Below, piece by piece: positions 1,923 to 22,820 of a stretch of 64,000 bases of DNA. Every line of letters begins with the position of its first letter. Position 1 is the stretch's first letter. The DNA lies in the IMG/VR virus record IMGVR_UViG_2884152688_000003, positions 1 through 64,000 of that record. One strand, given 5' to 3'. This stretch comes from a virus (lineage: Duplodnaviria > Caudoviricetes). Below the pieces are notes generated by a model. That model was not told the DNA's origin, made no database searches, and was given only the letters and a program-made list of their open reading frames with translations. The translations under genes and the position numbers were made by a program.

Positions 1923-2086
1923 TCAATTCTCCTTTTTGTTATTCTATAATAACATAATTTTTTTGTTAAGTTCCAAGATGGACGCAAATATAGATAGTTG
2001 TTTTGTTACTATATGTACATTATATCATAATTGTAATGTTATGTCAATGAATTTAGTTGAAAATGTATAATAAAATTCAACTTTCA

Positions 2087-2290
2087 TTATTGCTTTTTCA
2101 TTTTCATTTTCTTTAAACCCACATCGAAAGCTCTGTCAATTATAATATCTCTCTTTTCTTTGTTTATTTCTCCTGTATGTTTTTCAAGTTCTACTAAGAA
2201 ACCTGTGGTTTGTGCGACCATCATGTACCAGCTTGAAATTAACAAGATTATTGTTATTATATTTAAAATTATTAATAATGTTAAAGCCAT
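2087..2290 (-). CDS. small membrane protein
   Basis: N-terminal hydrophobic helix, RBS upstream. Confidence 0.6.
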   Translation of the reverse strand: MALTLLIILNIITIILLISSWYMMVAQTTGFLVELEKHTGEINKEKRDIIIDRAFDVGLKKMKMKKQ

Positions 2291-2307
2291 TATCTCACCA
2301 CCTTCCG

Positions 2308-2994
2308 TTAATTTCCCACAATCAATTCGTTCGCATATGGCAATGCTCTTATTTCATCCAACAATACACCCCATTCTTTGTCTAATCTGTGGTTCTTTCT
2401 TTGATGATAAATGTTTCTAAGTTCTTGATAATTTGTCACTATTGTTCTGGTCTGTAAAAATGATTCTGGTAACAGTTGTTTCGCCGCCCTTAGATATTTT
2501 GCATCTTTATTGTTTTCAAAATATTCCTGTTTTGCCATATTGATATCATGTGTTACATCTTTTAATGTATCCTTAATGTCCACATATGAACCATCTAAAA
2601 AATAATCTTCAATATAGAAATCATCTAAAGTTATATCTTTATCTTTCTGAAATAATTTATGCATAGTTGAGCAGCTATTCTTTTCAACAAATTTATATGT
2701 ATCAAATTCACTCCACCAATAGCGTGGCATTGTTATGTCCATCCACACTGTTATAAATCTAAGGAATTTACAGTGTTCTGTCCCTGCTTTAATTAATTGC
2801 TGGGCTAACCTTAGATTATCTTCTCCAAAACTAAAATTATAACCTATGATATTCCTACTATCTACATCATATACTGGGTCAAGAGTGCTATCGTCTTTTC
2901 TCCAAGAGTTCATCGGATTACGCATACCTTTTATAGCCGGTTCAAATCCAGCCACTTCTAATGTTTCAGCTTTCATATTATTGTATTGTATCAT
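2308..2994 (-). CDS. ThyX-like (flavin-dependent thymidylate synthase fold) phage protein
   Basis: EHCKFLRFITV, PRYWWSEF, AKQLLPES, NYQELRNIYHQR; canonical RHRxxS motif is divergent. Confidence 0.55.
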   Translation of the reverse strand: MIQYNNMKAETLEVAGFEPAIKGMRNPMNSWRKDDSTLDPVYDVDSRNIIGYNFSFGEDNLRLAQQLIKAGTEHCKFLRFITVWMDITMPRYWWSEFDTYKFVEKNSCSTMHKLFQKDKDITLDDFYIEDYFLDGSYVDIKDTLKDVTHDINMAKQEYFENNKDAKYLRAAKQLLPESFLQTRTIVTNYQELRNIYHQRKNHRLDKEWGVLLDEIRALPYANELIVGN

Positions 2995-3402
2995 TTATAA
3001 TTTCCCTTCCTCTAACAACTTTGTCTTTTCTTCGTCTATATCTTCCTCATGTATAAAACAAATCATTGTTTCCTTTGTCTTTTCATTAACTTCAAAAAAA
3101 GAATACATTTCACATCCAGAAATAGATAACTTATAAGGTCTTATAATCTTGCCATTTTTTAGAACAACTTTTTCTACATCAGTATATTTGTGATTATACT
3201 CTGCTTTTACATTAATTTTCCCATTAATAAGCATTTTATCTTCTAATTGAACTTCTATTGCAGGGACTAATACTCCTAAGCTCCTAGCAAGTCTTGTCCT
3301 TTTAAACATAAATACTCCCTTATAACCATCTATACCAAATATCTTTCCATCTTCTACTTCACTGTTATTCTTAATTACCTCTATCTCTTTTTCTGTATAC
3401 AT
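2995..3402 (-). CDS. hypothetical protein
   Basis: ORF; start moved to ATG at 3402 behind GGAGG. Confidence 0.65.
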   Translation of the reverse strand: MYTEKEIEVIKNNSEVEDGKIFGIDGYKGVFMFKRTRLARSLGVLVPAIEVQLEDKMLINGKINVKAEYNHKYTDVEKVVLKNGKIIRPYKLSISGCEMYSFFEVNEKTKETMICFIHEEDIDEEKTKLLEEGKL

Positions 3403-3413
3403 CTTATACCTCC

Positions 3414-4034
3414 CTAATCTATTGTTCCTACAAAGCGTCCATCCTCTTGTTCTAAAAGCCAAATATCACTATTTTGTACCACTTTCAATTTTTCAATTAA
3501 TTGATTTGTTTCTGCAATAGTCTTTAAATCATATAAGTCTATATCCAATTTTTCAGAAGAAAATGAATCATCAAAAGTATGTCCTATGTCGTCAAAGAAC
3601 ATATCGCCAATATCTATAAGTTGATCTTTCACATATATATCGGTTGAAGCCTCACTCCAGTAATCCGACTCTTCCATATCAGCTTTACTTATTGATAACA
3701 AACCTTGATTCCTATTTACACATTCTGTGTTTAAATATTTCTTGTCAATTTCTGGATACAACTCCATTAGTTTATCAATATCAGATTGTTTGTCTGTGAG
3801 GCCTCCATGGACTATTCTCTTGGAATTTTTAAAATTTGACTTCTCTTTTTTATTATTATGTAGATAATCCAAAGTATCGAGTATAATATCTTGACTACCA
3901 TCTAAATACTTTAGTAATTTTATGCTCTCTATTATGCCTGGGATAGTAAACCCTTCCCAGTGATAATAAATATTACCCATTCTCTTTTTATCTTCTTTAT
4001 TTTCATATATATTAATTACTAATCTCTGTCCCAT
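3414..4034 (-). CDS. hypothetical phage protein
   Basis: 206 aa ORF with RBS; MGQRL...IYYHW N-terminus. Confidence 0.7.
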   Translation of the reverse strand: MGQRLVINIYENKEDKKRMGNIYYHWEGFTIPGIIESIKLLKYLDGSQDIILDTLDYLHNNKKEKSNFKNSKRIVHGGLTDKQSDIDKLMELYPEIDKKYLNTECVNRNQGLLSISKADMEESDYWSEASTDIYVKDQLIDIGDMFFDDIGHTFDDSFSSEKLDIDLYDLKTIAETNQLIEKLKVVQNSDIWLLEQEDGRFVGTID

Positions 4035-4806
4035 TCTTATTCTCCTTAACCCATAAATTTAATTCTACTTCTTTGTTATTAGGAAACCAATTTTGCCATG
4101 GGTCTCTAACAGAAACATTATCATAGTCATAGTAATCTTTACTTTTTTCTTTTAAAGGTGTTAAAATTAGAGGATGTTTAGCTAAACATACAGTTTTATA
4201 TCTGTGATCATTTAGAAGTAACTTTTTAATCTCTTTTATTTTATCTATCTCAACACCATAACTATATAGTACTCTTGTTATATTTTGATTTTCTCTTTTC
4301 ATTTCTAGTAATTTTTCGTTAGACTCTAAAACTTCTTTTATAATTTCAGTTTGTTCATATCCCTTTAATGTTTTAATCATATACAGTGTATCTAGTTCCG
4401 AAGCTTTAGTAATACTGTTTGATAATCTTACCTCGTCACCTTCAATAATTTCGACATCCAATGTTTCATTATGAAAAACATCAATTGAAATACTTCTATA
4501 TATCTCTTCTTTATCATTATATGAACAGTCTAAATATGTAGGAACATCCCTTTTTATATTTTCATTAAATATTTTTATGGTTTCATTTTTAGAGAGTTTC
4601 CCTCTAAGGTATTTAATCATTAATCCATGTAGTGCATGAATATCTATTAATGAATTTTTATAAATAAATCTCCCATAATCATCATGTTCTCTTAATATCA
4701 ATGGGTTTTGCAAACTTAATATTTTTGCAAAGTTTTTATCTAGTGGCATTTTACAACTTTTCTTTAATTGTCTTCCGTTTGTTAGCAAAAAATTAAAACA
4801 TCCCAT
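4012..4806 (-). CDS. hypothetical protein
   Basis: 264 aa ORF, coupled to neighbours. Confidence 0.7.
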   Translation of the reverse strand: MGCFNFLLTNGRQLKKSCKMPLDKNFAKILSLQNPLILREHDDYGRFIYKNSLIDIHALHGLMIKYLRGKLSKNETIKIFNENIKRDVPTYLDCSYNDKEEIYRSISIDVFHNETLDVEIIEGDEVRLSNSITKASELDTLYMIKTLKGYEQTEIIKEVLESNEKLLEMKRENQNITRVLYSYGVEIDKIKEIKKLLLNDHRYKTVCLAKHPLILTPLKEKSKDYYDYDNVSVRDPWQNWFPNNKEVELNLWVKENKNGTEISN

Positions 4807-5226
4807 TTAAATTGTCTCATCTATATTTATCTTAATTTCTTTTTTCCAATCCAACATTTCCTTTGGATCCATCTTGTAACATTCAAATTTTATTTTTGTT
4901 ATCTCTTCTATTTTCTCAATATTCTCTTTTATTCTTTCGATATTCAAGAAATCTTCTAACTCATATTCCTTTATATGATTTTCTATATAAGAAATATAAT
5001 CTTCTTTATTTTCCACTTCTAGCTTTAATATTTCTGAAATCAGAACATCACATTCATTTTTTAAGTGCTGAAGATTAAAAATATATTCTGGCAGCCTATC
5101 AAATAATAATGCTTGTTCTTTTTCTTCTGCATACGTCCATTCTTTTTTGAACGTTAAATTCATATTTGACATAATTTCACATCTTTCATCTCTTATTGCT
5201 TCAATTATTGTTTGTCTTAAATTCAT
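4807..5226 (-). CDS. hypothetical protein whose last 20 aa are identical to those of the 53325..54209 protein
   Basis: ORF with AAGGAG RBS before ATG 5226; ends DPKEMLDWKKEIKINIDETI. Confidence 0.7.
   Translation of the reverse strand: MNLRQTIIEAIRDERCEIMSNMNLTFKKEWTYAEEKEQALLFDRLPEYIFNLQHLKNECDVLISEILKLEVENKEDYISYIENHIKEYELEDFLNIERIKENIEKIEEITKIKFECYKMDPKEMLDWKKEIKINIDETI
4808..4879 (-). repeat. 72-bp inverted copy of 54137..54208
   Basis: 71/72 identical by direct comparison. Confidence 0.95.
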
Positions 5227-5239
5227 ATATTCTCCTTTA

Positions 5240-5554
5240 TTATTTATTTTGATTTTCAATCATATGATTCATAATCTTGCATCTCAAATCTAAAGGAAAC
5301 TCTTTTAGATTAATAGTTGTTGTAAGGTTATGTTTTTTATCAAACTCCATCATACCTTCTGCTAATTTAAATGCCAATGTATTCTCTCTCACTTCAATTT
5401 CATCGACTCTATTATTGGCATGGTAACACTTTTCGCCTAAACTAGCTATCTTTTCCAATAATAACTGGATTTCAAGTCTTCTAAACTTATCGTCCCCAGA
5501 TATTTCAAATTCTTCGTTTTCTATATCTTCTTGTACATCTCTTGTTAAACCCAT
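5240..5554 (-). CDS. hypothetical protein
   Basis: ORF with AAGGAG RBS. Confidence 0.7.
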   Translation of the reverse strand: MGLTRDVQEDIENEEFEISGDDKFRRLEIQLLLEKIASLGEKCYHANNRVDEIEVRENTLAFKLAEGMMEFDKKHNLTTTINLKEFPLDLRCKIMNHMIENQNK

Positions 5555-5660
5555 ATATTCTCCTTTATTTTATTAATTATTTTGCTTTTTACTTGTTTTA
5601 TTAAGTTTATATCGAATTAAATTTTATTTATTTAAGTGTACTCACAATAAAACATCTCTT

Positions 5661-6305
5661 TTATTGCACTATATGTTCACTCATTTTTCCACCTTTAAAT
5701 CGAACATATTTTTTTATTTCATTTCCATTTCTTATCACAAATCCTTCCACGTGTCTATCCTTAGTCTTTATATATTCGCTGTATATTTCGTCTAATTCTG
5801 ATAAACATGGATAATTTTCTAATTGTGCTACAATAGGAACAACTTCCATAAAGTTTGGTATCTCTTGATTTATAAAAACATATTTGATTAAGCCTAAATC
5901 ATAATTTAATTTCGAAATCTCATATTCTTCATTTATATTTGCTTTTGCAAAAGGATTAAATCTACAGAATTCTTTTCCATATTTAATTCTTCCCATGGCT
6001 ATCCATTCTCCAAATACGCAACTCTTTTCATTTATATTATTTCTAAGTTCTTCACCATGTTCTTGCAACCATTCATAAAGACCTTTGTATAATTCTTTAT
6101 ATAAATCTTCGTGTTGTTCCAATCTATCTATGTTATAAATTCTATTTCTTGTAGCAATATGTAATTCTCCATCTAATTTGAAAAACCCTAAGTTAGAACC
6201 ATCTAATTTTTCTGTTAGAACTATTCCTTTACTTGTTCCTACTCTTTGTGTTTTTGGGTATAAGGACTTCTTTACCCAACCTTTATCTTTTATGTCTTCT
6301 CTCAT
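5661..6305 (-). CDS. RNA ligase family protein
   Basis: Nucleotidyltransferase motifs EKLDGSN (I), VFGEW (III), EGFVIR (IV). Confidence 0.8.
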   Translation of the reverse strand: MREDIKDKGWVKKSLYPKTQRVGTSKGIVLTEKLDGSNLGFFKLDGELHIATRNRIYNIDRLEQHEDLYKELYKGLYEWLQEHGEELRNNINEKSCVFGEWIAMGRIKYGKEFCRFNPFAKANINEEYEISKLNYDLGLIKYVFINQEIPNFMEVVPIVAQLENYPCLSELDEIYSEYIKTKDRHVEGFVIRNGNEIKKYVRFKGGKMSEHIVQ

Positions 6306-6312
6306 TGTTCCC

Positions 6313-6903
6313 CTATACTTTCTCTATATCTTCTTTAAATACAAGCATTGCACCATATGTACTTTTAAATTCAATTGTGTAACATTCTGTGTTCATCTCA
6401 ATATAAGCTTTTGTGATAACTGCTGTCTCACCATATTCACGAATCTTTTCATTGATTAATTTTACTTTATCACCTTTTTTGAATTTCATTCTGTTAATTA
6501 TTCGATTAATTCTTTCGTTTTCAATTTCCAAATATTCAGCTACTTCTTCTAAACTTTTAAAGTATCTTCCACCATTTCTGTTAACCATTTCTCCCACTTG
6601 ATTTAATGATCTGTATTTCCCTTTAGTCCAACCATTACCAGTGTTGCCTAATAGGCAAAAAATTGTTTTCTCAGGTTTTTTGTTACTATCATCTATAACT
6701 TCTGCTATAGAATAAACACCTGTCATTTCTGGTGTGATTACATACAAACAAAAATCACAAATTTCTCTTTGTTCCCTCTCTTCTTCCATACACTCCTCTG
6801 TCCAGTCACCTACAACTGGATTAAAGTAATTAATTGTAAGCATTGGCATTAAATCATCTCTCCATGTACTATTATTGCAAGTACCACCTAAGAATACTTT
6901 CAT
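6313..6903 (-). CDS. nucleoside 2-deoxyribosyltransferase-like protein with C-terminal SH3-like extension
   Basis: VFLGGTC..STWR, YFNP, GVYSIAEV; tail FKKGDKVK. Confidence 0.75.
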   Translation of the reverse strand: MKVFLGGTCNNSTWRDDLMPMLTINYFNPVVGDWTEECMEEEREQREICDFCLYVITPEMTGVYSIAEVIDDSNKKPEKTIFCLLGNTGNGWTKGKYRSLNQVGEMVNRNGGRYFKSLEEVAEYLEIENERINRIINRMKFKKGDKVKLINEKIREYGETAVITKAYIEMNTECYTIEFKSTYGAMLVFKEDIEKV

Positions 6904-6906
6904 ATA

Positions 6907-7122
6907 TTACTCCTTTGTCTTATTATTAAAATATATATTCTTTTTAGTCTTTTCTATAAATTCCTCTGATTTTTTAATATTTTTCTCAAAATCTTCATTA
7001 AAAATCTTTTTATTATCTTTTTTAAAATCTTTGATTGCCCATATCATTATTCCAACCATAATTATAAATACTATAAATTGAAAGACTATCCACATTAATG
7101 CCACTATCCCTAATTGTTCCAT
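6907..7122 (-). CDS. small membrane protein
   Basis: ORF, one TM helix. Confidence 0.6.
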   Translation of the reverse strand: MEQLGIVALMWIVFQFIVFIIMVGIMIWAIKDFKKDNKKIFNEDFEKNIKKSEEFIEKTKKNIYFNNKTKE

Positions 7123-7132
7123 TTATTTCTCC

Positions 7133-7366
7133 TTACATAAATTTATTTGTTATTAAATTCATTACTTCTGGTAATAGTTGCTCATCTATTGACTCTTCTT
7201 GGAATAGGCTTTGTAATGTATACTTAAATCGTTTACCACATTCTATTAAATTTTCTTCACTTAGATAAACTTCTTTTCGTAAACTTTCAGTTTTCGTTGT
7301 GGCTATTTTGTAAACATTATATTTTCTTCCACCAATTCTTATCTCAGTTATTTTGACATTTTCCAT
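7133..7366 (-). CDS. hypothetical protein
   Basis: ORF in operon. Confidence 0.6.
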   Translation of the reverse strand: MENVKITEIRIGGRKYNVYKIATTKTESLRKEVYLSEENLIECGKRFKYTLQSLFQEESIDEQLLPEVMNLITNKFM

Positions 7367-7570
7367 TTACTTCTCCCTAGATTTCTCAAGTTCTTTTTTT
7401 ATACTTTTCTCTAATTTACTATAATTATCATCTATACATTCCCCTAACATCTTTATACGTTTGTCTAAACATTCAAGCATGATACCAACACTATATCTAA
7501 GTATTAAAATAGATATTATTTGGGTCGTTAAGACAAAGATAAATATTGATAATTTTATAAACACTTCCAT
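7367..7570 (-). CDS. small membrane protein
   Basis: ORF, one TM helix. Confidence 0.6.
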   Translation of the reverse strand: MEVFIKLSIFIFVLTTQIISILILRYSVGIMLECLDKRIKMLGECIDDNYSKLEKSIKKELEKSREK

Positions 7571-7938
7571 TAAGAACTCACTCCAAATTCTCCAATTTTG
7601 TCATTTACTCTAATTAAACAGGGTTCTTCCATTGTATTCTGAATTAATATTGAAACTTCTTCATATGGATAAATATTTAAGTTGGATATTTTAATTGGAC
7701 TAACCGAACATCCTTTAAGCTTAGAACTCACCCAGTGCCCTTCTCCAAAATCTAATATATGTCCTGTTCCACATATTATCGCTTCTAGTGGCTTTAGAAT
7801 ATAATGGTTATCTTTTAAATCAACTATCCTCCCTTTTTTATTTATAATTTTAAATTTTTTTACAAATAAGTCATTCCAACTCTCTGTTTCTTTTTCTTTT
7901 TTTGGAAATGTTGCTATATCTTTTATTTTTTTTATCAT
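7570..7938 (-). CDS. degenerate dUTPase-fold protein (tentative)
   Basis: YILKPLE..ICGTG and EVSILIQN...IRVNDKIG resemble dUTPase but catalytic motifs are absent. Confidence 0.35.
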   Translation of the reverse strand: MIKKIKDIATFPKKEKETESWNDLFVKKFKIINKKGRIVDLKDNHYILKPLEAIICGTGHILDFGEGHWVSSKLKGCSVSPIKISNLNIYPYEEVSILIQNTMEEPCLIRVNDKIGEFGVSS

Positions 7939-7992
7939 AATTTACCTCTTTCTATTTATTATTCTATTCTTCTACTCAATAAAAGAGTGATT

Positions 7993-8298
7993 TTAACCAA
8001 CTTCTACTTCTTGCCAAAAGGACATTTTAGCAGCCCCTTCAATTAATTCGTCTAACTCTTTTATTTTTTCTTCCGTTTCTTCACAAAAATAATCTGCTAA
8101 AACATATAATTTTAAAACATCTGTAGCAAGAGAAAAACTTCTACCCGATAGTCTTGGATTTGGTGCTGTTCTTATCATCTCTTTTACTGCTTCTCTATCT
8201 ATTACACCATTTTTTATTTTTCCGTCATCTTTCAGTTTTAATAAAATCTGAGCCACTCTATAATCTGGATTAGTCATTATTACTATGTTTTTATCCAT
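7993..8298 (-). CDS. hypothetical protein
   Basis: ORF with RBS. Confidence 0.65.
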   Translation of the reverse strand: MDKNIVIMTNPDYRVAQILLKLKDDGKIKNGVIDREAVKEMIRTAPNPRLSGRSFSLATDVLKLYVLADYFCEETEEKIKELDELIEGAAKMSFWQEVEVG

Positions 8299-8641
8299 TG
8301 ATCTTTCCCCTCAATAATTCTTCAACTTTTCTAATTTCTTCTAAATACTGACTCTTTAATTTATCTAAATATTCTTCTTTTGTGTAAATAGAAAGTCTAT
8401 ACTCTATGGGTTCATCCCAATCACCATCAGACTCTAATGTAATGGTATTTATATTACCTTTAATGAACTCGAATATCTCCCCTTTTTCTTCTAGCGCCTC
8501 ATTTTCATCTATGTTGATCCAATCACATATCACTTCTCTTCTGTTATCTTCACAATCACTTATTTTCTCTTTACCATAATTCTCTTCAAAGCTCCCGCCT
8601 CTATATTTATTTTCAATCACCAATATTTTTTTGTTCTTCAT
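8291..8641 (-). CDS. hypothetical acidic protein
   Basis: Start at ATG 8641 behind AAGGAG. Confidence 0.65.
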   Translation of the reverse strand: MKNKKILVIENKYRGGSFEENYGKEKISDCEDNRREVICDWINIDENEALEEKGEIFEFIKGNINTITLESDGDWDEPIEYRLSIYTKEEYLDKLKSQYLEEIRKVEELLRGKING

Positions 8642-8676
8642 ATCATTCTCCTTATCACAATCACTTAATGAGTTTA

Positions 8677-9198: not shown

Positions 9199-9223
9199 AT
9201 ATTAATCTCCCACTCCTATATTT

Positions 9224-9658: not shown

Positions 9659-9730
9659 TATTTGTAACCAACTCCTTATTCCACTTTATTTTTTCTTTAT
9701 TTTTTTACCTCAATAAAATATTGTTTTTAA

Positions 9731-10216
9731 CTAAATTAATAAATACACTGTCATAAATATAGCCGCACCTATCAACAATAGCAATGCTTCTTGCACTTCA
9801 TTGTATTTGTTATTTTTCATATCATTTATCTTAGCGTTACACTCTATACACTCCAGCATATCATTTATATTTGTTTCACACATATCTTTTGTTGTCTTGA
9901 CTATATCTAGCTCATTGTACTTTTCTAATTCCTTATAATATCTATTATAGTCGCCACTGTTTATTTGCTTGTATGGATTCTTTCCCATAAAATCTACTGC
10001 GTTAAATCCATAGTTCAAAAAAAATGCGAGTTGTATTATCCCAAACAAAAAAACATTGTTACTATATTTAGAAATAATTTCTTTGAAGAAAATATAAGAA
10101 AGCACTGTCACTACCAACAAGATAATAATATTAATCTGCTTGTTTTTAATTAACTCTTTTCTCTTTTCATCCTCCTCAATATATAAATTATGGACTATTC
10201 TATACAATTCGTTCAT
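9731..10216 (-). CDS. membrane protein, paralog of 8677..9198
   Basis: MNELY...MLECIECNAKIN. Confidence 0.7.
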   Translation of the reverse strand: MNELYRIVHNLYIEEDEKRKELIKNKQINIIILLVVTVLSYIFFKEIISKYSNNVFLFGIIQLAFFLNYGFNAVDFMGKNPYKQINSGDYNRYYKELEKYNELDIVKTTKDMCETNINDMLECIECNAKINDMKNNKYNEVQEALLLLIGAAIFMTVYLLI

Positions 10217-10227
10217 TTTATGCTCCC

Positions 10228-10464: not shown

Positions 10465-10466
10465 AA

Positions 10467-11219: not shown

Positions 11220-11260
11220 AATTATTCTCCTATTTTAGTTTAAATGTTTCTTTATTCTCT

Positions 11261-11893: not shown

Positions 11894-11905
11894 TATTTAT
11901 CTCTC

Positions 11906-13011: not shown

Positions 13012-13012
13012 A

Positions 13013-13531: not shown

Positions 13532-13561
13532 ATATTACCTTTCTTAATTAAAATAAATAAT

Positions 13562-14005
13562 TTATTGTTCCTTTTTTGTCTCAGTCAATATTTCTAAAAA
13601 TTCTAATATATCGGAAAGATGATTATCATGTTTTATAAACTCCATTTCTTCATGTAGTATTCTATAAAACTTTTCTTTACTTATAAAAGAATCCTCTAAA
13701 CATCCTTCTGCATCTATTCCATTCATATAAATATTTGCAATCTCTTCTAGATTTTTCTTTAATATTCCTGTGTAAAATCCATTTCCATAATCCTCATGGA
13801 CATCTATATCTTCTATAATTTCACAAATATCTCTTGAACTATATCTATATTCATACAAAATCCAATCATATCTCAATTTTACATTTTCTATTTTAAACAG
13901 TGTATCCAAAGTCCATTCATCATCTCTATATCTTGCATCAGCTATTATGTTGCCTATATCTTCTAGCCTACTCAACTCTATCAATTGTATTATTTCGTCT
14001 TCCAT
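13562..14005 (-). CDS. hypothetical acidic protein
   Basis: ORF with AAGGAG RBS. Confidence 0.65.
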   Translation of the reverse strand: MEDEIIQLIELSRLEDIGNIIADARYRDDEWTLDTLFKIENVKLRYDWILYEYRYSSRDICEIIEDIDVHEDYGNGFYTGILKKNLEEIANIYMNGIDAEGCLEDSFISKEKFYRILHEEMEFIKHDNHLSDILEFLEILTETKKEQ

Positions 14006-14042
14006 TACTTACTCCTTATCATTAAACTAATATTTATAAAAC

Positions 14043-14444: not shown

Positions 14445-14537
14445 TTTACTCCTCCTTTTTTTTAACATACCCAAACCCTTGCAATACACCACTTTGTTGA
14501 CGTCAACAAAATGGGTAATTTAAATAAAATGCTGTTT

Positions 14538-14705
14538 TTATTCATCATTCCATATTTCTTTCATCTTGTTCCCCTCTTTTTCCTTAACTGATAATAATTC
14601 AGTTTCTCCATTTTCTTTTATCCGAATTACTGTTTTGTATTTTTTATCTTTGTCTCCTATCATTGCTGTTAAAATAAGATCTTTCTTATCTTTTGCCTTT
14701 TTCAT
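14538..14705 (-). CDS. 55-aa hypothetical protein
   Basis: Hand-read MKKAKDKKDLILTAM...EIWNDE*, AAAGGA RBS, flanked on both sides by the junction motif. Confidence 0.55.
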   Translation of the reverse strand: MKKAKDKKDLILTAMIGDKDKKYKTVIRIKENGETELLSVKEKEGNKMKEIWNDE

Positions 14706-14727
14706 ATTAATCCTTTTTTAATAAAAA

Positions 14728-15102
14728 TTACATTTTATGTAATAATACTTTTTCCTTACCATCTTCAACTATCCAAACTGCTTTTAAAAATAAATCTTCA
14801 GATGTTATAACTATAGAATGCTTATTTGATAATAAAGATATTTTTTGACAAAGTTCATGAAATATATTATTCGCAACATCCTCGTCTTGTTCGTTATTTA
14901 CCTTTATCCTTACATTCAATTCATCGCCTTTTTTGTTTTTCAGAAACCACCAAAAAGTATCGCCACGTCCTATGCAAGTTTCCATGTTGAAATCTCCTAT
15001 ATTTTCCATATCAATATTTTCAACATAAGTTCCTTTTTCTCCCATAATTCCATCTACTTCTTCTCCAGCTATTCTATCTATCCATGTTATTCTTTTAATC
15101 AT
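14728..15102 (-). CDS. hypothetical protein (MIKR family)
   Basis: ORF with RBS. Confidence 0.65.
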   Translation of the reverse strand: MIKRITWIDRIAGEEVDGIMGEKGTYVENIDMENIGDFNMETCIGRGDTFWWFLKNKKGDELNVRIKVNNEQDEDVANNIFHELCQKISLLSNKHSIVITSEDLFLKAVWIVEDGKEKVLLHKM

Positions 15103-15784: not shown

Positions 15785-16031
15785 CTTCTATACCTCTTTT
15801 TTTACTAAATTTATCTCTTACACCTCTCAATATAATTGTCATTTTATTGTTTATTATTGAATATTCCGATATTCTTTATATATTTTTTTACATTTTCTCT
15901 TCTTATTTCTTTATTTAATCGTTTTTTTTGATTAACTAATATCAATTTTCTATATTTATCAGGTTCTTCTTCCATTAAATATAATAATTTCCAAAATTTC
16001 ACATTTATATGTCCTTCTCATCTTAATGAAA

Positions 16032-16463
16032 CTAAACTTTCATTGATTTTCTTATTTCTTCTATATCATATAAAAGAGTTCTTTCTATTCCATTCAATAA
16101 GATATTAAATTGATTTTTTGTAATATCTAAAAATTTGAAACAGTTAACAATTTTTGCCATAGAACAACGTTCTGTATAATACAACCTATCAAATATTAGT
16201 GTTAAATCATTCAAATTATTAACATCATCTATTTGAGCAATAGTATCTCTAGTTTCCTCTAAAGAAAGAGAAATTCTTTCCCAAAATGAATTATAGTTAA
16301 CAAATCCTTTTTCTCCCGCACTTATTCTTTCCCCTATTTCTATTTCTGGAATTTCTTCTCTTAATATTTGTTCAAACTCTTCATTTGACATATTATCTAA
16401 TATTTCTTCTATTCTCTCCACTTGCTCTTTCATTGTCTTTTTCATATATCTCTCATTTCCCAC
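16032..16463 (-). CDS. hypothetical protein
   Basis: ORF in operon. Confidence 0.6.
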   Translation of the reverse strand: MGNERYMKKTMKEQVERIEEILDNMSNEEFEQILREEIPEIEIGERISAGEKGFVNYNSFWERISLSLEETRDTIAQIDDVNNLNDLTLIFDRLYYTERCSMAKIVNCFKFLDITKNQFNILLNGIERTLLYDIEEIRKSMKV

Positions 16464-16645
16464 TCATCACATTCATTCGGGACTTCTATTTCATATTCAA
16501 TTTCATCGAAGTCTAATTCTGTTAATTCTTTTGAAATCGTTTTCCCTAATAAATATAATCCTTCACTATCAAGTTCACCATAATCATCTTCATCAACTTC
16601 ATAGTAACAAGTCATATTTTTATGTATTATTATTTCTCTGCTCAT
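16442..16645 (-). CDS. small acidic protein
   Basis: ORF in operon. Confidence 0.6.
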   Translation of the reverse strand: MSREIIIHKNMTCYYEVDEDDYGELDSEGLYLLGKTISKELTELDFDEIEYEIEVPNECDEWEMRDI

Positions 16646-16657
16646 CTACTCTCTTTC

Positions 16658-17293
16658 TTAAATATTCTCTAATCTCACTATTTTTACTGGTTCACTATTA
16701 TACCATTGGATAGACTCAAAAGAATTATCTTCTAAAGGTAATTCTTTCTCTAATCCTACACTTTCCCACTCTTCACAATTGCAAGAATCACCACAAGAGG
16801 TTTTAGCAGGTTCTTTTTCAAATAAGATTAATGCTTCATTCCTACCTTCTCGTTCATTTTTGGCTATCCAGTTGTATTCTTTATCGATATATTTCATTAT
16901 CCTTAACTCATCATCGCTACATTTTTGAACTGTTTTAGTCGCTTCGTGGTCTATACAACTATTCCCGACCATTTTGTTATCGCCTACATAATACCAAATT
17001 TTATCAAGACAATCTTTAGTTATACTGTTGATGTAATATATTTTGTATCCATGTTTAATATTTCCACAAACAACCTTATCTCTAACTTTATACATTACCT
17101 TTCGTTCGTTTTCAATTGAATGATCTATATCTGTTAAGTTCAGGCTTTCACACTCCTCCCAGATTACACCCCTAAGTATAAATAATTCTCCATTAAATAT
17201 ATTGTATTTCTCATTACTTATTCTAAAAATTTGTCCTTCTTCTAAATCGTAATGTTCTTTAATTAATTCTAATATTCTTCCACTTAATTTCAT
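16658..17293 (-). CDS. hypothetical phage protein, paralog of 10467..11219
   Basis: FRISNE, WIAKN...LILFEKEP. Confidence 0.7.
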   Translation of the reverse strand: MKLSGRILELIKEHYDLEEGQIFRISNEKYNIFNGELFILRGVIWEECESLNLTDIDHSIENERKVMYKVRDKVVCGNIKHGYKIYYINSITKDCLDKIWYYVGDNKMVGNSCIDHEATKTVQKCSDDELRIMKYIDKEYNWIAKNEREGRNEALILFEKEPAKTSCGDSCNCEEWESVGLEKELPLEDNSFESIQWYNSEPVKIVRLENI

Positions 17294-17320
17294 AAGACCT
17301 CCTATTCCTTAATAAAATGA

Positions 17321-17539
17321 CTATTTTAACTTGTTTTTATACTCACTTAAAAGATTATATCTTTTTATCGGATTAAATTCTTTATAGTTAAACCTATAAT
17401 TTAAATATCCTCTAGCGTCCAAATTAAAATTCGGTTCAAAATCTTGAATCCTACTGCTAGGATACGTATATCCTGTTCTTTTATTCACTAATACCATATC
17501 GGCTGTATCAGAGCTAATTTTAAATGTTAGTAAGTTCAT
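17321..17539 (-). CDS. hypothetical protein
   Basis: ORF with AAGGAGGTG RBS. Confidence 0.65.
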   Translation of the reverse strand: MNLLTFKISSDTADMVLVNKRTGYTYPSSRIQDFEPNFNLDARGYLNYRFNYKEFNPIKRYNLLSEYKNKLK

Positions 17540-17593
17540 TAAATATCACTCCTTTTTAATATAATCATACTTTTATCATAAATACGCATTTTA

Positions 17594-18058
17594 TTACATT
17601 GCGTACATACCATTACTTAAATCTTTTTTATGCTGTTCTATGAAATCATTAATTTCTTCAAATATTTTTTTATATGATTTATCGCAAACATTACCTTCGA
17701 TTTTTATACATGGAGTCACAAAATTGATTTTAGACTCATTCTTATATGTCTGATATTGTTTGTAATATCCATTTTCTAATACTATTATCAAAACTTCATC
17801 ATTAGAATTTATTATTTTGTTCATAATCCTATCAGATATTTTTCTTACATCTTCTATTGTAAAATCTTCCGTAACTTTGAATTTTATTTTTACTGAAATT
17901 ATCTCCTGTATTGGATTACACATCTGAATATCCAAACATGGTTCAGTATATAATTGTGTTTTTAACTCTCCACCTGAAAAATCATATTTTTCTAAATCAT
18001 TATGAAACCACAATGTACTTTCTTCTTTCAAACTCTTAATAACCATTTTTTTTATCAT
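17594..18058 (-). CDS. hypothetical protein
   Basis: ORF with AAGGAG RBS. Confidence 0.65.
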   Translation of the reverse strand: MIKKMVIKSLKEESTLWFHNDLEKYDFSGGELKTQLYTEPCLDIQMCNPIQEIISVKIKFKVTEDFTIEDVRKISDRIMNKIINSNDEVLIIVLENGYYKQYQTYKNESKINFVTPCIKIEGNVCDKSYKKIFEEINDFIEQHKKDLSNGMYAM

Positions 18059-18121
18059 ATATTCTCCTTTAATTCACCCTATTTTTATATTTTTCTTATA
18101 TAGTATAATTATGTTTTTTTA

Positions 18122-18634
18122 TTATCCATCTATTAGCAAAGGTTCGATACACCTTTTATAGTAGTCTGGTATATATTCTTTTGTTACATCTAATAAACAA
18201 GATGGTTCAACGTCTAAACCCAAGTCGAAGTCTTTAGACATCTGTAATATATATTTCTTATCTTCTTTGTCTTCTCTCATGTAGTCATTCAATTTCTCTA
18301 TTTCATATTCTGTAATCAATCTATTTGTTTCTATGAAATACATTCGTTCTTTCATAAACATTGACACTTCTAAATCCTCGCCTATCCCTTTCGGGAAAAT
18401 ATCATCAAACATTTCTTTTATAACATCCCTAGGTTCATTCAACAAAGACCCTACTATATCAACCTTTACTTTTTCAATTTCCGTCAATCTGTTGTAATCT
18501 AAGTTTATCAAGTCGACACCGATTCTTTCTCCACAGTAACTTAATAATGAGTTTAAATTCTTCCTTAAAATTTCTTGATATTCAAACGCATGAACAACTT
18601 TTAAATTACCTATTGCATAATAATATTTTTTCAT
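18122..18634 (-). CDS. hypothetical protein, paralog of 19183..19662
   Basis: Ends PDYYKRCIEPLLIDG; start ATG 18634. Confidence 0.65.
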   Translation of the reverse strand: MKKYYYAIGNLKVVHAFEYQEILRKNLNSLLSYCGERIGVDLINLDYNRLTEIEKVKVDIVGSLLNEPRDVIKEMFDDIFPKGIGEDLEVSMFMKERMYFIETNRLITEYEIEKLNDYMREDKEDKKYILQMSKDFDLGLDVEPSCLLDVTKEYIPDYYKRCIEPLLIDG

Positions 18635-18671
18635 ATTCAATAAAACCTTCCTTTTATTTAAAATACTTCTT

Positions 18672-19172
18672 TTATTTAATCCTTTCACTCCATTTAAACT
18701 TTTTTATATCATCATATCTAATTAATATAGATTCAGAGTAAACCGACTTTAACTTACCACCATACTTAATTTCCACAATTTCTGATTTTACGTTAAATGG
18801 TATCATAAACTCAAAAAATGGGTCATTCCCTAAGAAAGATTCTATGCTAAATACTTCATCTAAATCTATTTCCCATATACTCACTGATTCTTCTAAATCT
18901 TCTTCTAAATAAAACATTCCTCTAACAAAATAATATTTCATCTCTACATCTAATTCATCTCGGATAGCTCCATATATTTCAACTAAATCATCTGAACGAC
19001 CCTTTATAAATACTACTCCATCTCTCTCCATTTCATCTTGAAATTCATTAAAATTATATGATAAATCTAGTCCGTTTAATCTTTTCTTCCACTTATTTAA
19101 TACATTTATTTCTTCTGAACGTTTACGATGTTCATTCTTTATTTCTATTACATCCTCCAGCATCGTTTTCAC
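18672..19172 (-). CDS. hypothetical phage protein
   Basis: VFIKGRSDDLVEIYGAIRDE motif. Confidence 0.65.
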   Translation of the reverse strand: MKTMLEDVIEIKNEHRKRSEEINVLNKWKKRLNGLDLSYNFNEFQDEMERDGVVFIKGRSDDLVEIYGAIRDELDVEMKYYFVRGMFYLEEDLEESVSIWEIDLDEVFSIESFLGNDPFFEFMIPFNVKSEIVEIKYGGKLKSVYSESILIRYDDIKKFKWSERIK

Positions 19173-19182
19173 TTACTTCTCC

Positions 19183-19662
19183 TTATATGTCTAATAATAA
19201 TGGTCTAATATGTTTGTCATAGTAGCTCGGATTATCCTCTTTCAACTTATCTAATAAGTATCCTCCGTTTAAATTATCTGGAATATCATCTAACTTCTCA
19301 CAAAATAACAGTTCCATTTCATCTTCTGTTAATTCTCTATTTACTCCCAATACATATATACCACCACCATATTGTATTTCGATTGTTAAGTTTTCAATAT
19401 CCATATCTAATTGATTAAAGTATTCTCTAGCTTTCAACTCAAAATAACCTGCATCTTTTGTCTTGTTGAAAATAAAATGAGTTTCTAACAACCTTATTAA
19501 TTCCATTTCGCTAAGATTTTCTTCGTCTAGAGTATCTAGAGTTATTCCTGTTTTCCTTTCATAAAATTCAAACATTCTAGTTCTACTCATCCCTATTATT
19601 GCTTCTATCTCAAATGCTCTTATTAGTTCTTGATTTGTTGTTTTATATAAATATTCTATCAT
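19183..19662 (-). CDS. hypothetical protein, paralog of 18122..18634
   Basis: Ends PSYYDKHIRPLLLDI. Confidence 0.65.
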   Translation of the reverse strand: MIEYLYKTTNQELIRAFEIEAIIGMSRTRMFEFYERKTGITLDTLDEENLSEMELIRLLETHFIFNKTKDAGYFELKAREYFNQLDMDIENLTIEIQYGGGIYVLGVNRELTEDEMELLFCEKLDDIPDNLNGGYLLDKLKEDNPSYYDKHIRPLLLDI

Positions 19663-19664
19663 CC

Positions 19665-19698
19665 ACTTCTCCTTCATTATGTAAAATTCACTAGCTTT
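19665..19698 (-). repeat. 34-bp leader/RBS repeat, second copy at 20326..20359
   Basis: acttctccttcattatgtaaaattcactagcttt identical at both sites. Confidence 0.9.
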
Positions 19699-19723
19699 TA
19701 TTTGCCAACTTCTGCCGAATTAG

Positions 19724-19972
19724 TTAAATCCCAACTATTGTAGGAATTATTATAAACAGAATAAAACCGACAATAGCTATTACAATTGTTATATTTAATT
19801 TCCTTGATTTATCTTTATATAATGTTTTTTGTTCCTCAATAGTTTCTTTTGAGTAATTATATCGTTCGTATATCTCTAAAATCCTATAGGTTTCATTTTT
19901 TTTGATTGTATACTCAAATATAAAGCAAAAATTGAACACCCATGTAATAAATAAGAACGCAATTAGCGGCAT
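19724..19972 (-). CDS. small membrane protein
   Basis: Two TM segments. Confidence 0.6.
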   Translation of the reverse strand: MPLIAFLFITWVFNFCFIFEYTIKKNETYRILEIYERYNYSKETIEEQKTLYKDKSRKLNITIVIAIVGFILFIIIPTIVGI

Positions 19973-20042
19973 AATTCCCCCCCAACTTAGATTTTTCTAT
20001 AAATCCATAAGAATACCTATCTTTTATTTTCTCCTAATATTA

Positions 20043-20321: not shown

Positions 20322-20374
20322 TTCTACTTCTCCTTCATTATGTAAAATTCACTAGCTTTATTTAATCTACTTCC

Positions 20375-20689
20375 TTATAAGTTAAATATCCAATCCCTCA
20401 TACCTCTATAATACTCATCTAACTCTTCAAGTAAGACCTTTTCAGTTGTCATTCTTATACTTATTGCTGAAACTCCGTCTTCTCTTTCTCCACTACATTC
20501 TATCCACACTGAATCTTCTTCCCCATTTAAAAATGCTTCTTTGTCGAATACAAAATCTTTGGGATTTGAATAGTAATTCAAGACAAGTTCTCTCATTGTC
20601 TCATTGTCTTCGTACTTTTTTAAATTTAACAAGTCACTGACATCATCACCTACTCCATAATGCCTTTTCATTTCAAAAATCTTTTTCAT
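20375..20689 (-). CDS. hypothetical protein
   Basis: Start ATG 20689 behind GAGG. Confidence 0.65.
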   Translation of the reverse strand: MKKIFEMKRHYGVGDDVSDLLNLKKYEDNETMRELVLNYYSNPKDFVFDKEAFLNGEEDSVWIECSGEREDGVSAISIRMTTEKVLLEELDEYYRGMRDWIFNL

Positions 20690-20761
20690 ATAATTTCCTC
20701 TCAATAAAATAAGAATTTCATTCAATTAAAAACACCAAAATACTAACTTTACTATATATCT

Positions 20762-20790
20762 ATTATAACATAATTTTTTTGTTATGTCAA
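20762..20790 (-). promoter_or_regulatory. consensus sigma-A promoter with overlapping ACATAA-N8-TTATGT palindrome
   Basis: Minus strand TTGACA-taacaaaaaaattatgt-TATAAT (17-bp spacer). Confidence 0.85.
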
Positions 20791-21020
20791 TTATTCTTAT
20801 ATATAGTATTAAATTATTTTTGGTGTCCCTTATAACTGTTTTTTTATTCGATTTTTACACGTAGTTTCGGATACTATGTCTGCATGTAACTATTTTACCT
20901 AAAATCACATGGGTAAAGAAGGGAGATTGACTCTCTTTTTTACTTAAAAGCATCTTTTTTGCAAGTTGCATCTATATAAAGTATTATAATATCCTCGCAT
21001 ATTAATATTTCTTGATCCAT

Positions 21021-21326: not shown

Positions 21327-21356
21327 TTGTTTATACCTATCTAGAAACTACAAACA

Positions 21357-21668
21357 CTAAACATATTTACAACTCATTATACTTGTCTCAACTTTAAAGT
21401 GCTTATCTAGATTCCCCTCTGTATAATATTTTGTAATTTCTTTCATTAGATCATCAAACTCATTGAGACCTTCCCTACTATGTTCTTCAAGCGTTATAAT
21501 TAAACATCTACCTTCATCCAAATAAATTTTTATTCGATAGCAATTGCTTTCATATGTTTTTTCTAAAAACTGTATTTTATAAAACGGAACTCTGAAAGAA
21601 GATTCCTTTCTCCCTATAATTGATGATACTATTAAACATGGATATTCTCCCCTTATTTCTTGCCACAT
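21357..21668 (-). CDS. hypothetical protein
   Basis: ORF with AAGGAG RBS. Confidence 0.65.
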   Translation of the reverse strand: MWQEIRGEYPCLIVSSIIGRKESSFRVPFYKIQFLEKTYESNCYRIKIYLDEGRCLIITLEEHSREGLNEFDDLMKEITKYYTEGNLDKHFKVETSIMSCKYV

Positions 21669-21713
21669 AATTTTTCTCCTTTTTTTATATTAAAAACTTG
21701 ATTTTATTTACTT

Positions 21714-22109
21714 TTAAAATAATTCTCTTATCTCTTCTTTAGTCATTTTCTCATATTCTACTTCAACCATTTTGCCACGTTCTTCACTTATTCTTTCAGC
21801 TTCTTTAAGTGCATTTACTTTATTTTCTAGATCAATCACTTGTGAAAAGTGATAATCTAAGTCCATATCCACATATACCAATGATTCATTTTCTTTTAAT
21901 TTAAAATCTTTATCTAAAGTGGTTGAAGGATATTCTTCAATAGGTATATCATATAATAATAGCGATATTACTTCTTCTGCGTAGACTACAGCTTTACCAT
22001 AAGTACTGGCATATGTTACCATCTCTCTATCTTCAAATGTTGGTAAAGTTACATAAAAAACGTTATCTTCTTTATTTTTTTCAATTACAACTGGATATAC
22101 GATATTCAT
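21714..22109 (-). CDS. hicB: HicB-family antitoxin-like protein
   Basis: YPVVI...FYVTLP.F...T....A...AEEVI.L.L. Confidence 0.7.
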   Translation of the reverse strand: MNIVYPVVIEKNKEDNVFYVTLPTFEDREMVTYASTYGKAVVYAEEVISLLLYDIPIEEYPSTTLDKDFKLKENESLVYVDMDLDYHFSQVIDLENKVNALKEAERISEERGKMVEVEYEKMTKEEIRELF

Positions 22110-22683
22110 ATTGTTCTCCTTTTCTTTCCCATTGCCTAATTATTAGAGCATTTCGTTTAAGCTCAACATTAGGATATTTTGCCAATAGTTTCCTTGTGTC
22201 AAATCCATGTGGAGTTACAACTGAAAACCCATTTGGGGTCTGATAAATTTCATATAAATCGTCACTCCCTAATATATTAACTAAATCATTTGTAAAGTCA
22301 TGGCTATAATCATTATTCTTTATGTTATCCAAGTCAAACAGGAACTTCTTTGTAATAGCCATATTAGGTTTTCCTGCAATCTTCTTGATTTTTCTCATAA
22401 TATTATCTAATCTTGTATCTTCAAAATCTATTAAATGATGGATCAACTCTTTTCGTATTTTTTCACCATCTCTTAAGTCTATGTATTCGTACCACCTAGA
22501 CATTTCACCATCAACACCTTCTTCTATGAATTTAATCCATTGCTCTTCCAATATTTCCCAGTCTTGCATTGTTGGTATATCTGGCAATAATAGTGTTTTT
22601 CCTCTTTCTTTAAACCCCTCAAGTTCTCTATTATCCTTGTTTCTTGACTTGAAAAGTATAAGTTTATAATTATTTTCAAACAT
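22081..22683 (-). CDS. hypothetical phage protein
   Basis: LFKSRNKDN, KKFLFDLD, TPNGF...HGFDTR; GAGGAGG RBS. Confidence 0.7.
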   Translation of the reverse strand: MFENNYKLILFKSRNKDNRELEGFKERGKTLLLPDIPTMQDWEILEEQWIKFIEEGVDGEMSRWYEYIDLRDGEKIRKELIHHLIDFEDTRLDNIMRKIKKIAGKPNMAITKKFLFDLDNIKNNDYSHDFTNDLVNILGSDDLYEIYQTPNGFSVVTPHGFDTRKLLAKYPNVELKRNALIIRQWERKGEQYEYRISSCN

Positions 22684-22706
22684 TTTATTCCTCCTCAATA
22701 AAATAA

Positions 22707-22820
22707 CTATTTTAACTCGTTTTTTGCCTTATCTTCAAGAAAAAGCATGATTGATATTATTATTACTTTATAAATTGCAACACCTGCAAATACCGGTATC
22801 CAGTTTTTAAATTCATCCAT
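22707..22820 (-). CDS. 37-aa hydrophobic peptide
   Basis: Hand-read MDEFKNWIPVFAGVAIYKVIIISIMLFLEDKAKNELK*, GAGGAGG RBS, first gene behind the promoter near 22935. Confidence 0.5.
   Translation of the reverse strand: MDEFKNWIPVFAGVAIYKVIIISIMLFLEDKAKNELK

Follow-up and report, generated by a model that had tools for sequence, protein, structure and literature searches.

What is the short palindrome that recurs between the genes of a phage's accessory region, what reads it, and has it a part in the exchange of genes between related phages? The question is raised by the first 64,000 nucleotides (the window) of IMG/VR record IMGVR_UViG_2884152688_000003, a contig (C12) of 106,300 bp and 29.7% G+C that belongs to a 2.15-Mb assembly of 30% G+C. 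Between positions 828 and 22835 the window carries, on its minus strand, an accessory array of about 49 co-oriented, mostly small open reading frames (ORFs), nearly all of which belong to no PHROG family or have no homologue in related phages; gene calls throughout are simple, crude ORF calls. The initial annotation had noticed an inverted repeat, AATAAAA-N6-TTTTATT (the dyad), at the boundaries of these genes and had proposed that it partitions an integron-like array of gene cassettes. The results presented here show that the dyad is a family-wide element of phiCD211-like phage-plasmids, phage-specific and restricted to gene junctions, and that in the Clostridioides difficile relatives the seams left when genes are inserted, deleted or replaced fall preferentially at its copies.

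The dyad and its place at gene boundaries

All 15 sites first reported hold, and the nine strict matches to TAAAA-N6-TTTTA that had been counted among the 14 sites between 2069 and 22716 were recovered at 5646, 7978, 9712, 14523, 14720, 17311, 18639, 21689 and 22697, with the outlying site at 31168 also strict. The remaining five of the 14 are degenerate, having TGAAA (2069 and 20703), TAAAT (13547), TTATA (15829) or two mismatches in the 3' arm (17576), and four strict copies had been overlooked, at 18659 (in tandem with 18641), 21564, 26044 and 32077. The recurrence is clearly non-random, as had been claimed: the window holds 15 strict matches, compared with 2.53 +/- 1.43 (largest 6) in 100 dinucleotide-preserving shuffles of it, none of which attained 15. 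The longer pattern ATAAAA-N6-TTTTAT, with one mismatch permitted, gives 24 matches where 6.1 +/- 2.5 are expected.

The fixed 6-bp spacer described by the initial annotation is equally evident. At a spacer length k of 6, C12:1-23000 contains 11 copies, compared with 0-2 at each other k between 0 and 15 and with 0-3 copies for a control with swapped arms, while the remaining genome, including the host chromosome, yields 66 copies at k=6 and 46-109 at other values, that is, no peak. In contigs C21 and C23, from the same assembly, the raw density of the motif is high, and again there is no peak at k=6. The commonest gapped 5-mer palindrome is TAAAA/N6 in C12, in phage phiCD211 and in the related contig G005:C2; in the related contig G102:C3 it is ATAAA/N8, the same dyad one base farther out, and because this form ranks first there, the full element is taken to be approximately AATAAAA-N6-TTTTATT.

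Fifteen of the 20 strict copies in C12 lie in junctions between co-oriented ORFs and five within coding sequence, in keeping with the gene-boundary location first proposed. Within the array, a strict copy occupies 9 of the 48 junctions, or 14 of 48 when the degenerate sites are included. The order of stop codon, site and then ribosome-binding site (RBS) on the coding strand, with the recurring sequence TTTTATTGAG, can be seen directly, and the stop codon is frequently the TAA of the 5' arm.

Distribution across the phage family and the seams of gene exchange

Judged from its gene content, C12 looks like a phage-plasmid, since it encodes ParA, a Rep3-type initiator, CI/LexA-like repressors and an anti-repressor in addition to the phage genes for a sigma factor, terminase, portal and tail proteins. 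Its far arm contains a tyrosine recombinase, a RuvC-like resolvase, a DNA ligase, NrdD, a PolIII-alpha-type polymerase and RtcB. The portal is 35% identical to that of C. difficile phage phiCD211/phiCDIF1296T, the gene order par, sigma, tRNA, exonuclease, terminase, portal is common to both, and by these sequence comparisons C12 is a distant relative of that phage. A close relative of the window's own lineage was found neither by megablast against phages and plasmids nor by scanning IMG/VR and GTDB contigs with two protein seeds, the portal and the product of one array gene; a DNA search of 112 genomes of the host family returned only scattered gene-sized matches to the window's phage. The loci of the single IMG/VR gene family that was matched show no peak at k=6. 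A 24-nt pattern of the C12 type, also tried in IMG/VR, was set aside: its 29 loci are isolated matches, with no second k=6 copy in 104,181 flanking bases.

A portal homologue is present in 10 of the 112 host-family species genomes (the window's own assembly, G000, included), and the dyad occurs in phiCD211-like phages of three host genera, in lineages whose portal proteins are only about 35-40% identical. Phage phiCD211 has 26 copies, compared with 7 for a reversed-pattern control, and five further C. difficile phage records (W03-W07) have 18-26, compared with 4-7. G102:C3 contains 24 copies at k=6 and 1-10 at other spacers, G005:C2 has a k=6 peak of 19 copies, and in genome G105 the phage contig C69 holds 8 of the 29 copies of the wider ATAAAA-N6-TTTTAT pattern. 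The portal-bearing relative G053:C3 shows no k=6 peak and no enriched dyad, the 21-kb fragment G059:C34, which covers late genes only, has zero copies, and two Lactococcus relatives have one copy each of the wider pattern. Family-wide motif counts over whole genomes are swamped by background. The signal is almost confined to the junctions: seven contigs have 558 co-oriented junctions whose gaps measure 0-150 nt (G059:C34 not counted), and these hold 53 copies at k=6, compared with 1, 0, 0, 1, 1 and 2 at k=3, 4, 5, 7, 8 and 9, respectively. In addition to the 15 of 20 in C12, junctions hold 16 of 24 k=6 copies in G102:C3, 21 of 26 in phiCD211 and 16 of 19 in G005:C2.

In 17 of the 53 junction copies the stop codon of the upstream gene is the motif's own TAA, the motif ends 11-22 nt ahead of the start codon in 30, and in junctions of at least 60 nt, 13 of 18 copies are stop-adjacent (a count made by eye). 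Position +20 is G in 33 of the 53, the flank reading TTTTATTGAG in C12 and TTTTAATA in the C. difficile phages, and the core begins with T in 35 and ends with A in 24. Among 83 distinct, non-identical orthologous pairs from seven C. difficile-group genomes, mismatch rates are 0.033 for the 5' arm and 0.019 for the 3' arm, compared with 0.106 for the core and 0.108-0.109 for the flanks, so that the arms diverge 3-5 times more slowly than the sequence within and around them. This does not fit the suggestion that the sites are inert scars. Given this slow change of the arms, the scarcity at k=6 of arm variants with one mismatch and the lack of enrichment for stems of any other sequence, it is the arms and the spacer length that matter and not the sequence of the core. 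Inversion of the core by a hairpin flip-flop was rejected as a general process, as it accounts for 1 of 41 differing orthologous core pairs. That pair is phiCD211 100695 and W03 98301, whose cores are exact reverse complements (CAAATG and CATTTG), through either a flip or two point changes.

Since no close relative of the window's lineage was found, the prediction that gains, losses and replacements of genes break at the site was examined in the C. difficile phages, where junctions with the motif proved to be seams more often than junctions without it. Against at least one of five relatives, a breakpoint of synteny or homology was found at 56 of 60 informative motif junctions, compared with 142 of 202 motif-free junctions within 5 kb; the Fisher p of 1e-4 is overstated since the genomes are related, and the direction is the same in all six. 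Alignment ends give a similar picture, with 311 at 145 motif sites and 673 at 494 control junctions, or 1.6-fold per site. Individual exchanges illustrate the pattern. A two-gene module of 1,758 bp is 98.7% identical between phiCD211 and W05 against a background of 88.8%, with a motif at both ends and unrelated sequence on the flanks, and a one-gene unit of 321 bp is flanked by two motifs. At an indel of 4,395 bp the empty site has one copy and the filled site two, one at each end of the insert, the three cores being CAAATG, CATTTG and CTATTG. W07 has a hybrid site whose core comes from one tandem copy and whose flank comes from the next, and tandem copies separated by 8 nt in phiCD211 have a small ORF between them in W05, where the motif starts are 190 nt apart; the start coordinates give the same 190-nt spacing in W06 and G005:C2.

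The cores themselves are ordered. Seven genomes contain 63 distinct cores, none of which occurs twice within one genome, and 23 are common to at least three of the seven, with their order kept and the distances between them variable. Other indels in the same genomes have ends with 3-56 nt of unrelated microhomology, one of them running from RBS to RBS, and these fit a general short-homology process. W07 lacks the 3.4-kb DNA polymerase segment of phiCD211 (82786-86140) and has a 14.7-kb replacement approximately 9 kb upstream, a difference which indicates that the replication module is swapped within the phage group, with one breakpoint at a dyad.

Candidate readers of the dyad

Conserved arms, a fixed spacer and a free core are, as a sequence pattern, what is classically seen where a dimeric protein reads a dyad. 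We tentatively favor the reading, at a probability of roughly 0.45, that the dyad is a slot-boundary element of phiCD211-like phage-plasmids, with a role in the operon that is likely exerted by a dimeric protein on DNA, and that it doubles as a crossover point. The element (A)ATAAAA-N6-TTTTAT(T), with its fixed arms, fixed spacer and free 6-bp core, sits in long co-oriented operons of small genes, holding accessory, early and replication genes, and would be retained for its role in the running of these operons. Its reader would most likely be a dimeric protein on DNA, providing stoperator-like punctuation or silencing, rather than a free RNA hairpin; three features favor a protein on DNA, namely the dyad form, a spacer that is fixed in length around a free core, and a hairpin that is marginal and shows no covariation. 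In form it matches an operator or stoperator: it has dyad symmetry, its half-sites are conserved, and its spacer is free in sequence but constant in length. Because the same short sequence lies at many junctions and orthologous slots have the same core, the recurrent dyads could also serve as crossover points between co-infecting relatives through short-homology recombination. The seam role would then be a by-product of the multiple copies, as has been shown for PeSLs in T4-type phages (PMC2839356), and would follow the logic of PeSL cassettes (see below) with no integron-type enzyme.

Several considerations weigh against this reading. No binding protein has been found, and no helix-turn-helix regulator is common to all motif-bearing lineages; a tblastn search at E 1e-4 gave no regulator shared by C12, G102:C3 and phiCD211, and the CI-like repressor of C12 has weak matches in some relatives only. 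As CI-like repressors are poorly conserved or undetected where the motif is conserved, the classical immunity-repressor stoperator is argued against. The only proteins present in all motif-bearing lineages and missing from G053:C3 are an exonuclease, a primase, a 107-aa ORF and transposase pieces. The reader is possibly a host protein, and we know of no likeness between the dyad and the CodY, LexA or ComK AT-box or other boxes of global regulators. Most copies overlap no promoter, and the tie to stop codons and RBSs in transcribed, co-oriented junctions would suit an RNA-level role equally well. Arms of 5-7 bp around a variable core are very short for homologous recombination, and a patch of homology needs neither dyad symmetry nor a fixed spacer, both of which would suit a recombinase dimer. 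Recombination among the copies, and not selection, could keep the arms uniform. Finally, the seam evidence comes entirely from sister lineages and none of it from the window's own, the enrichment is moderate (93% of motif junctions compared with 70% of the others, and 1.6-fold per site), the genome comparisons are non-independent and the gene calls are crude.

A published description of the dyad was not found in a literature of which subscription papers were partly covered and supplements excluded, and the paper on phiCD211-like phages (PMC5786514) does not speak of anything palindromic or intergenic, nor of a motif, terminator or promoter. The nearest parallels are with other repeated intergenic elements of phages. 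The PeSLs of T4-type phages combine a strong sigma-70 promoter with a stable, often G/C-rich stem-loop terminator, both activities having been shown experimentally according to the available parts of two reports (Arbiol et al. 2010, PMC2839356; Comeau et al. 2014, PMC4122927). As far as those parts go, the dyad resembles PeSLs in being a short motif repeated between genes, from the stop codon to the Shine-Dalgarno sequence of the next gene, in its concentration in hyperplastic regions of small ORFans, where it bounds indels and replacements between relatives, and in also flanking plastic core genes such as that for DNA polymerase. It differs in being a bare 16-20 bp of A/T with a free core, no promoter of its own and no stable hairpin, and its hosts are temperate siphovirus-like phage-plasmids of Clostridia.

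Stoperators are reportedly asymmetric and orientation-dependent, and are said to be bound by the immunity repressor, with which they co-vary. PMC3203893 names those of mycobacteriophage L5 and Cluster A as 13-bp sites with a part in the regulation of transcription. Many short copies in the operons of a temperate phage, an intergenic location near stop codons and a host without the sites are features that stoperators reportedly have in common with the dyad; unlike stoperators, the dyad is symmetric and constant across lineages whose repressors are not detectably conserved. Cluster K mycobacteriophages carry a 13-bp, asymmetric, G/C-rich element (SAS) that includes the RBS, and a companion (ESAS) with inverted arms of 17 bp and a spacer of 4-13 bp (Pope et al. 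2011, PMC3203893, in the portion available). Within the same portion, the SAS/ESAS pair is likewise a family-specific repeat, one that accompanies gene starts and lies in the non-structural genome half, kept across subclusters and absent from the host, and the ESAS shares with the dyad the form of an inverted repeat, its own spacer being variable. The dyad differs in having arms of 5-7 bp and a spacer of exactly 6, and it is anchored at the upstream stop more often than at the start.

A less probable alternative is that the dyad acts as a junction signal on the polycistronic mRNA, in processing, 3'-end formation or stability, attenuation, or as an aid to termination-reinitiation, through an A/U hairpin or A-rich and U-rich tracts at a fixed distance, the seams then being survivors that kept the signal. 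That it occurs solely in transcribed junctions of co-oriented genes, by the stop codon and immediately 5' of the Shine-Dalgarno sequence, agrees with this proposal, as do the conserved flank on the sense strand (TTTTATTGAG in C12, TTTTAATA in the C. difficile phages), the core ends T (35 of 53) and A (24 of 53), which would lengthen the stem, and the G in the 5' arm of sites 2069 and 20703, which would pair as G-U in the sense RNA. The scanned part of the array (1-20000), moreover, is without an ordinary terminator on the coding strand. However, the 20-mers fold as RNA at 0 to -2.0 kcal/mol, which is marginal, and several 32-mers fold no better than their shuffles. The stem sequence is constant, with no covariation, and G-U wobble variants (6, compared with 3.3 in controls; small numbers) are not clearly favored. 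RNA-binding proteins usually recognize the loop of a hairpin, which here is free in sequence, and the host's own genes do without the element, so that host translation or decay machinery alone does not require it. An Rfam scan returned tRNA only, with no family matching the junction dyad. Nor is the dyad an intrinsic terminator of the usual kind, as it has no G+C hairpin and its U-tract is its own 3' arm; no site was called terminator-like, the stems being A/U only and the T-run being the 3' arm itself. Ordinary G/C hairpins do exist elsewhere on the contig, for example at C12:85657-85686.

It is somewhat less likely again that the dyad is the substrate of a site-specific recombinase, the arms binding a dimer of the Xer-like or another enzyme and strand exchange taking place in the core, which as a slot-specific sequence would permit exchange only between equal slots of co-infecting relatives and so keep the gene order. 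The geometry is suitable, 7-6-7 with an exact 6-bp spacer being that of a tyrosine-recombinase core site, and such an enzyme is encoded in all eight full-length relatives searched (PF00589, E 1e-24 in C12; homologues 25-31% identical), although a ninth contig, the 21-kb fragment G059:C34, gave no match. Additional support comes from the 4.4-kb indel, where one copy at the empty site and two around the insert resemble integration into a site, from modules bounded by sites on both sides with unrelated flanks, and from cores that are ordered, slot-specific and never repeated within a genome. Orthologous slots of different genomes often have the same core and different slots of one genome never do; a classical tyrosine recombinase would thus be blocked between different slots and permitted between equal ones. 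The layout of promoter, site and first gene recalls Pc-attI, and among the proteins found throughout the family no other one with a dyad-binding mode came to light.

The same proposal faces a number of difficulties. The arms are short for such enzymes, the cores of the 4.4-kb indel are not simple parental or hybrid products, and tandem copies 2-8 nt apart are not predicted by excision. G053:C3 has the enzyme and no enriched dyad, while many seams and indels lie at motif-free junctions (70% of which are seams) and use other microhomology. The enzyme is not an integron integrase, and a phage-plasmid needs one of its kind for dimer resolution anyway. No motif-like site lies beside the recombinase gene. 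That gene, at C12:84434-85579 and outside the window, encodes the only clear tyrosine recombinase of the contig, a generic Xer-like protein; it scores 55.7 bits against TIGR02249 (cut-off 265, residues 303-373 only) and 30.3 against NF011946 (435), and all Xer models fall below their cut-offs. A second, divergent tyrosine recombinase may be encoded by the 440-aa ORF 29754-31076 (minus strand), judging from its sequence matches to PHROG 10004 and 5830 (integrase, E 4e-13). This ORF has no Pfam or NCBIfam match and weak homologues in some relatives only, and a dyad abuts its promoter.

Comparison with known recombination systems bears on the original proposal of an integron-like cassette array, for which neither an integron-type integrase nor an attC-like structure was found. 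The array does resemble an integron in its co-oriented, mostly promoterless small ORFs with a palindromic site and a promoter before the first, and in the gain and loss of gene-sized units. It differs in having no IntI, in conserving the sequence of the arms and not a folded structure, and in having tandem copies and, commonly, multi-gene units; site-bearing junctions number 14 of 48, the array has three promoter copies with sites after two of them, and the units comprise one to several ORFs. attC sites are 57-141 bp long, compared with 16-20 bp for the dyad, and are marked by GTTRRRY/RYYYAAC boxes, none of which occurs in it. The R''-L''...L'-R' architecture of attC is absent from the dyad, a 16-20 bp element with arms conserved in sequence. 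The broader idea of cassette acquisition or shuffling stands in part: the seams at the site in the C. difficile relatives speak for it, while integron machinery was not found and the sites are not inert scars. The Xer/dif system has in common with the dyad the arms around a 6-bp center and an Xer-like recombinase in every full-length family member examined, but dif arms are approximately 11 bp, compared with 5-7 bp here, and the dyad exists in dozens of copies, each with a different core. To our knowledge, it has no sequence likeness to Firmicute dif sites.

More doubtful still is the specific proposal of addressed-slot exchange, in which the arms would recruit a tyrosine recombinase or other enzyme and the unique core would serve as an address, an enzyme-driven process distinct from that of integrons. 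The possibility that TAA stops, A- and T-rich intergenic DNA and AU-rich leaders yield the pattern as a compositional by-product, natural enough in genomes of 27-30% G+C whose junctions start with TAA and end in AU-rich leaders, is negligible and is refuted by the spacer scan, which enriches the 6-base spacer alone (11 compared with 0-2 copies in C12:1-23000, 53 compared with 0-2 in the family's junctions), as well as being opposed by the 15 matches against 2.5 in dinucleotide-preserving shuffles, the missing peak in an equally A+T-rich host chromosome and contigs C21 and C23, and the conservation of the arms between relatives.

The copies of the window, their surroundings and their meaning

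The individual copies, all on the minus strand unless otherwise stated, show how closely the dyad is fitted to its junctions. At 5646..5665 the strict copy AATAAAA-GAGATG-TTTTATT supplies, with the TAA of its 5' arm, the stop of ORF 5661-6305. The strict copy at 7978..7997 (GTTAAAA-TCACTC-TTTTATT, then GAG; repeat family D4) has the stop of ORF 7993-8298 within its 5' arm, and that at 9712..9731 (GTTAAAA-ACAATA-TTTTATT, then GAGG) begins at the G of the TAG stop of ORF 9731-10216 and is followed by an RBS-like stub without an ORF. The stop of ORF 14538-14705 lies in the 5' arm of the strict site 14523..14542, which has a promoter-like TTGACG hexamer approximately 20 nt downstream. Stops fall inside the 6-base core at two further strict sites, 14720..14739 (ORF 14728-15102) and 17311..17330 (the TAG of ORF 17321-17539), the latter being part of a 33-nt repeat. 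Two strict copies stand in tandem, 2 nt apart, at 18639..18676 (16-mers 18641-18656 and 18659-18674), between ORFs 18672-19172 and 18122-18634. The strict copies at 21689..21708 and 26042..26061 each begin 10 nt past a stop (ORFs 21714-22109 and 26067-26402), the second lying in the regulatory region beyond the interval first annotated. The strict site 22697..22716 immediately precedes the RBS of ORF 22081-22683, which is the first gene of any size past the promoter copy 22936-22894, the sole ORF upstream of it being a doubtful one of 42 codons.

Among the degenerate copies, 2069..2088 (5' arm TGAAA) lies past the stop of ORF 2087-2290 and approximately 25 nt upstream of the promoter copy 2047-2019, 13547..13566 (5' arm TAAAT) is at the junction 13562/13531, and 15829..15848 (3' arm TTATA) is at the junction 15844/15784. 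The copy at 17576..17595, with its two 3'-arm mismatches, can alternatively be read as ATAAAT-GCGT-ATTTAT. The copy at 20703..20722 (5' arm TGAAA) is located between the promoter copy 20791-20749 and the RBS of ORF 20375-20689, and since it has no upstream cistron it would lie in a 5' leader. The strict site 31168..31187 has its 3' arm directly against the -35 hexamer (TTGACATAAC) of the promoter ahead of ORF 29754-31076. Copies of background type were found at 21564..21579 (a strict 16-mer inside ORF 21357-21668, strand not given), at 44489-44504 inside the terminase ORF and at 32077-32092 inside the first codons of ORF 31599-32108.

The recognizable promoters of the array are copies of a 43-nt repeat and not the palindrome. 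This strong sigma-A-type promoter (family D1; TTGACATAAC...TGTTAtAAT, minus strand) occurs at 22894..22936, 20749-20791 and 2006-2048, the copies being 72-100% identical, with the -10 extended by TG and the TTGACATAAC -35 region conserved. The copy at 2006-2048 includes ACATTA...TAATGT, which may be an operator-like inverted repeat of its own, and a similar TTGACATAAC promoter adjoins site 31168. The order of promoter, site and first RBS is found at two copies (20703 and 22697), and a -35-like hexamer follows only three sites (2069, 14523 and, abutting, 31168). A promoter scan was overall at the level of shuffles (130 compared with 132), and no terminator-like hairpins were found on the minus strand of the array in the part scanned, 1-20000. 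Two other repeats were noted at junctions. One, of 51 nt and 86% identical, lies at 19662-19712 and 20323-20373 ahead of two different small ORFs and reads AAATAAA(A)GCTAGTGAATTTTACATAATGAAGGAG on the coding strand, a pair of A-run and T-run with a longer spacer than the 6-base dyad. The other, of 33 nt and 91% identical (17306-17338 and 22692-22724; D9), takes in the dyad and the RBS along with the final codons of the two upstream ORFs, which are unrelated to each other, and its presence at two junctions indicates that a junction piece bigger than the dyad has been copied within the array.

Elsewhere in the window, insertions of the IS200/IS605 type (tnpA/tnpB or tnpB alone) are present at 39319-40882, 57300-58844 and 61743-62993. 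Two of the three split the tape-measure gene (pieces 59634-61172 and from 63983 on), and as this gene is broken, this copy of the phage may not make tails. The ends of such elements were considered as a source of the dyad and rejected, as those in the window are unlike the motif. The array gene 6313-6903 has an 82% identical copy on another contig of the same assembly (G000:C15:308-889, matching window 6323-6904) and a 77% identical piece in the genome of another genus (G088:C12:182485-182729).

The joints of phage mosaics fall precisely at gene boundaries, and whether this reflects selection on random joints or directing sequences is an old question, for which the dyad provides a compact and countable handle. 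It is conserved across a family of clostridial phage-plasmids of approximately 105-135 kb, including C. difficile prophages, in which it marks ordered slots with differing contents. If the dyad is protein-binding punctuation, it would add an extra regulatory layer in a little-studied group of phages. If it is a recombination substrate, it would constitute a new route for accessory genes among the phages of a gut pathogen and its kin, and addressed slots, if true, would allow co-infecting phage-plasmids to swap genes without scrambling their order.

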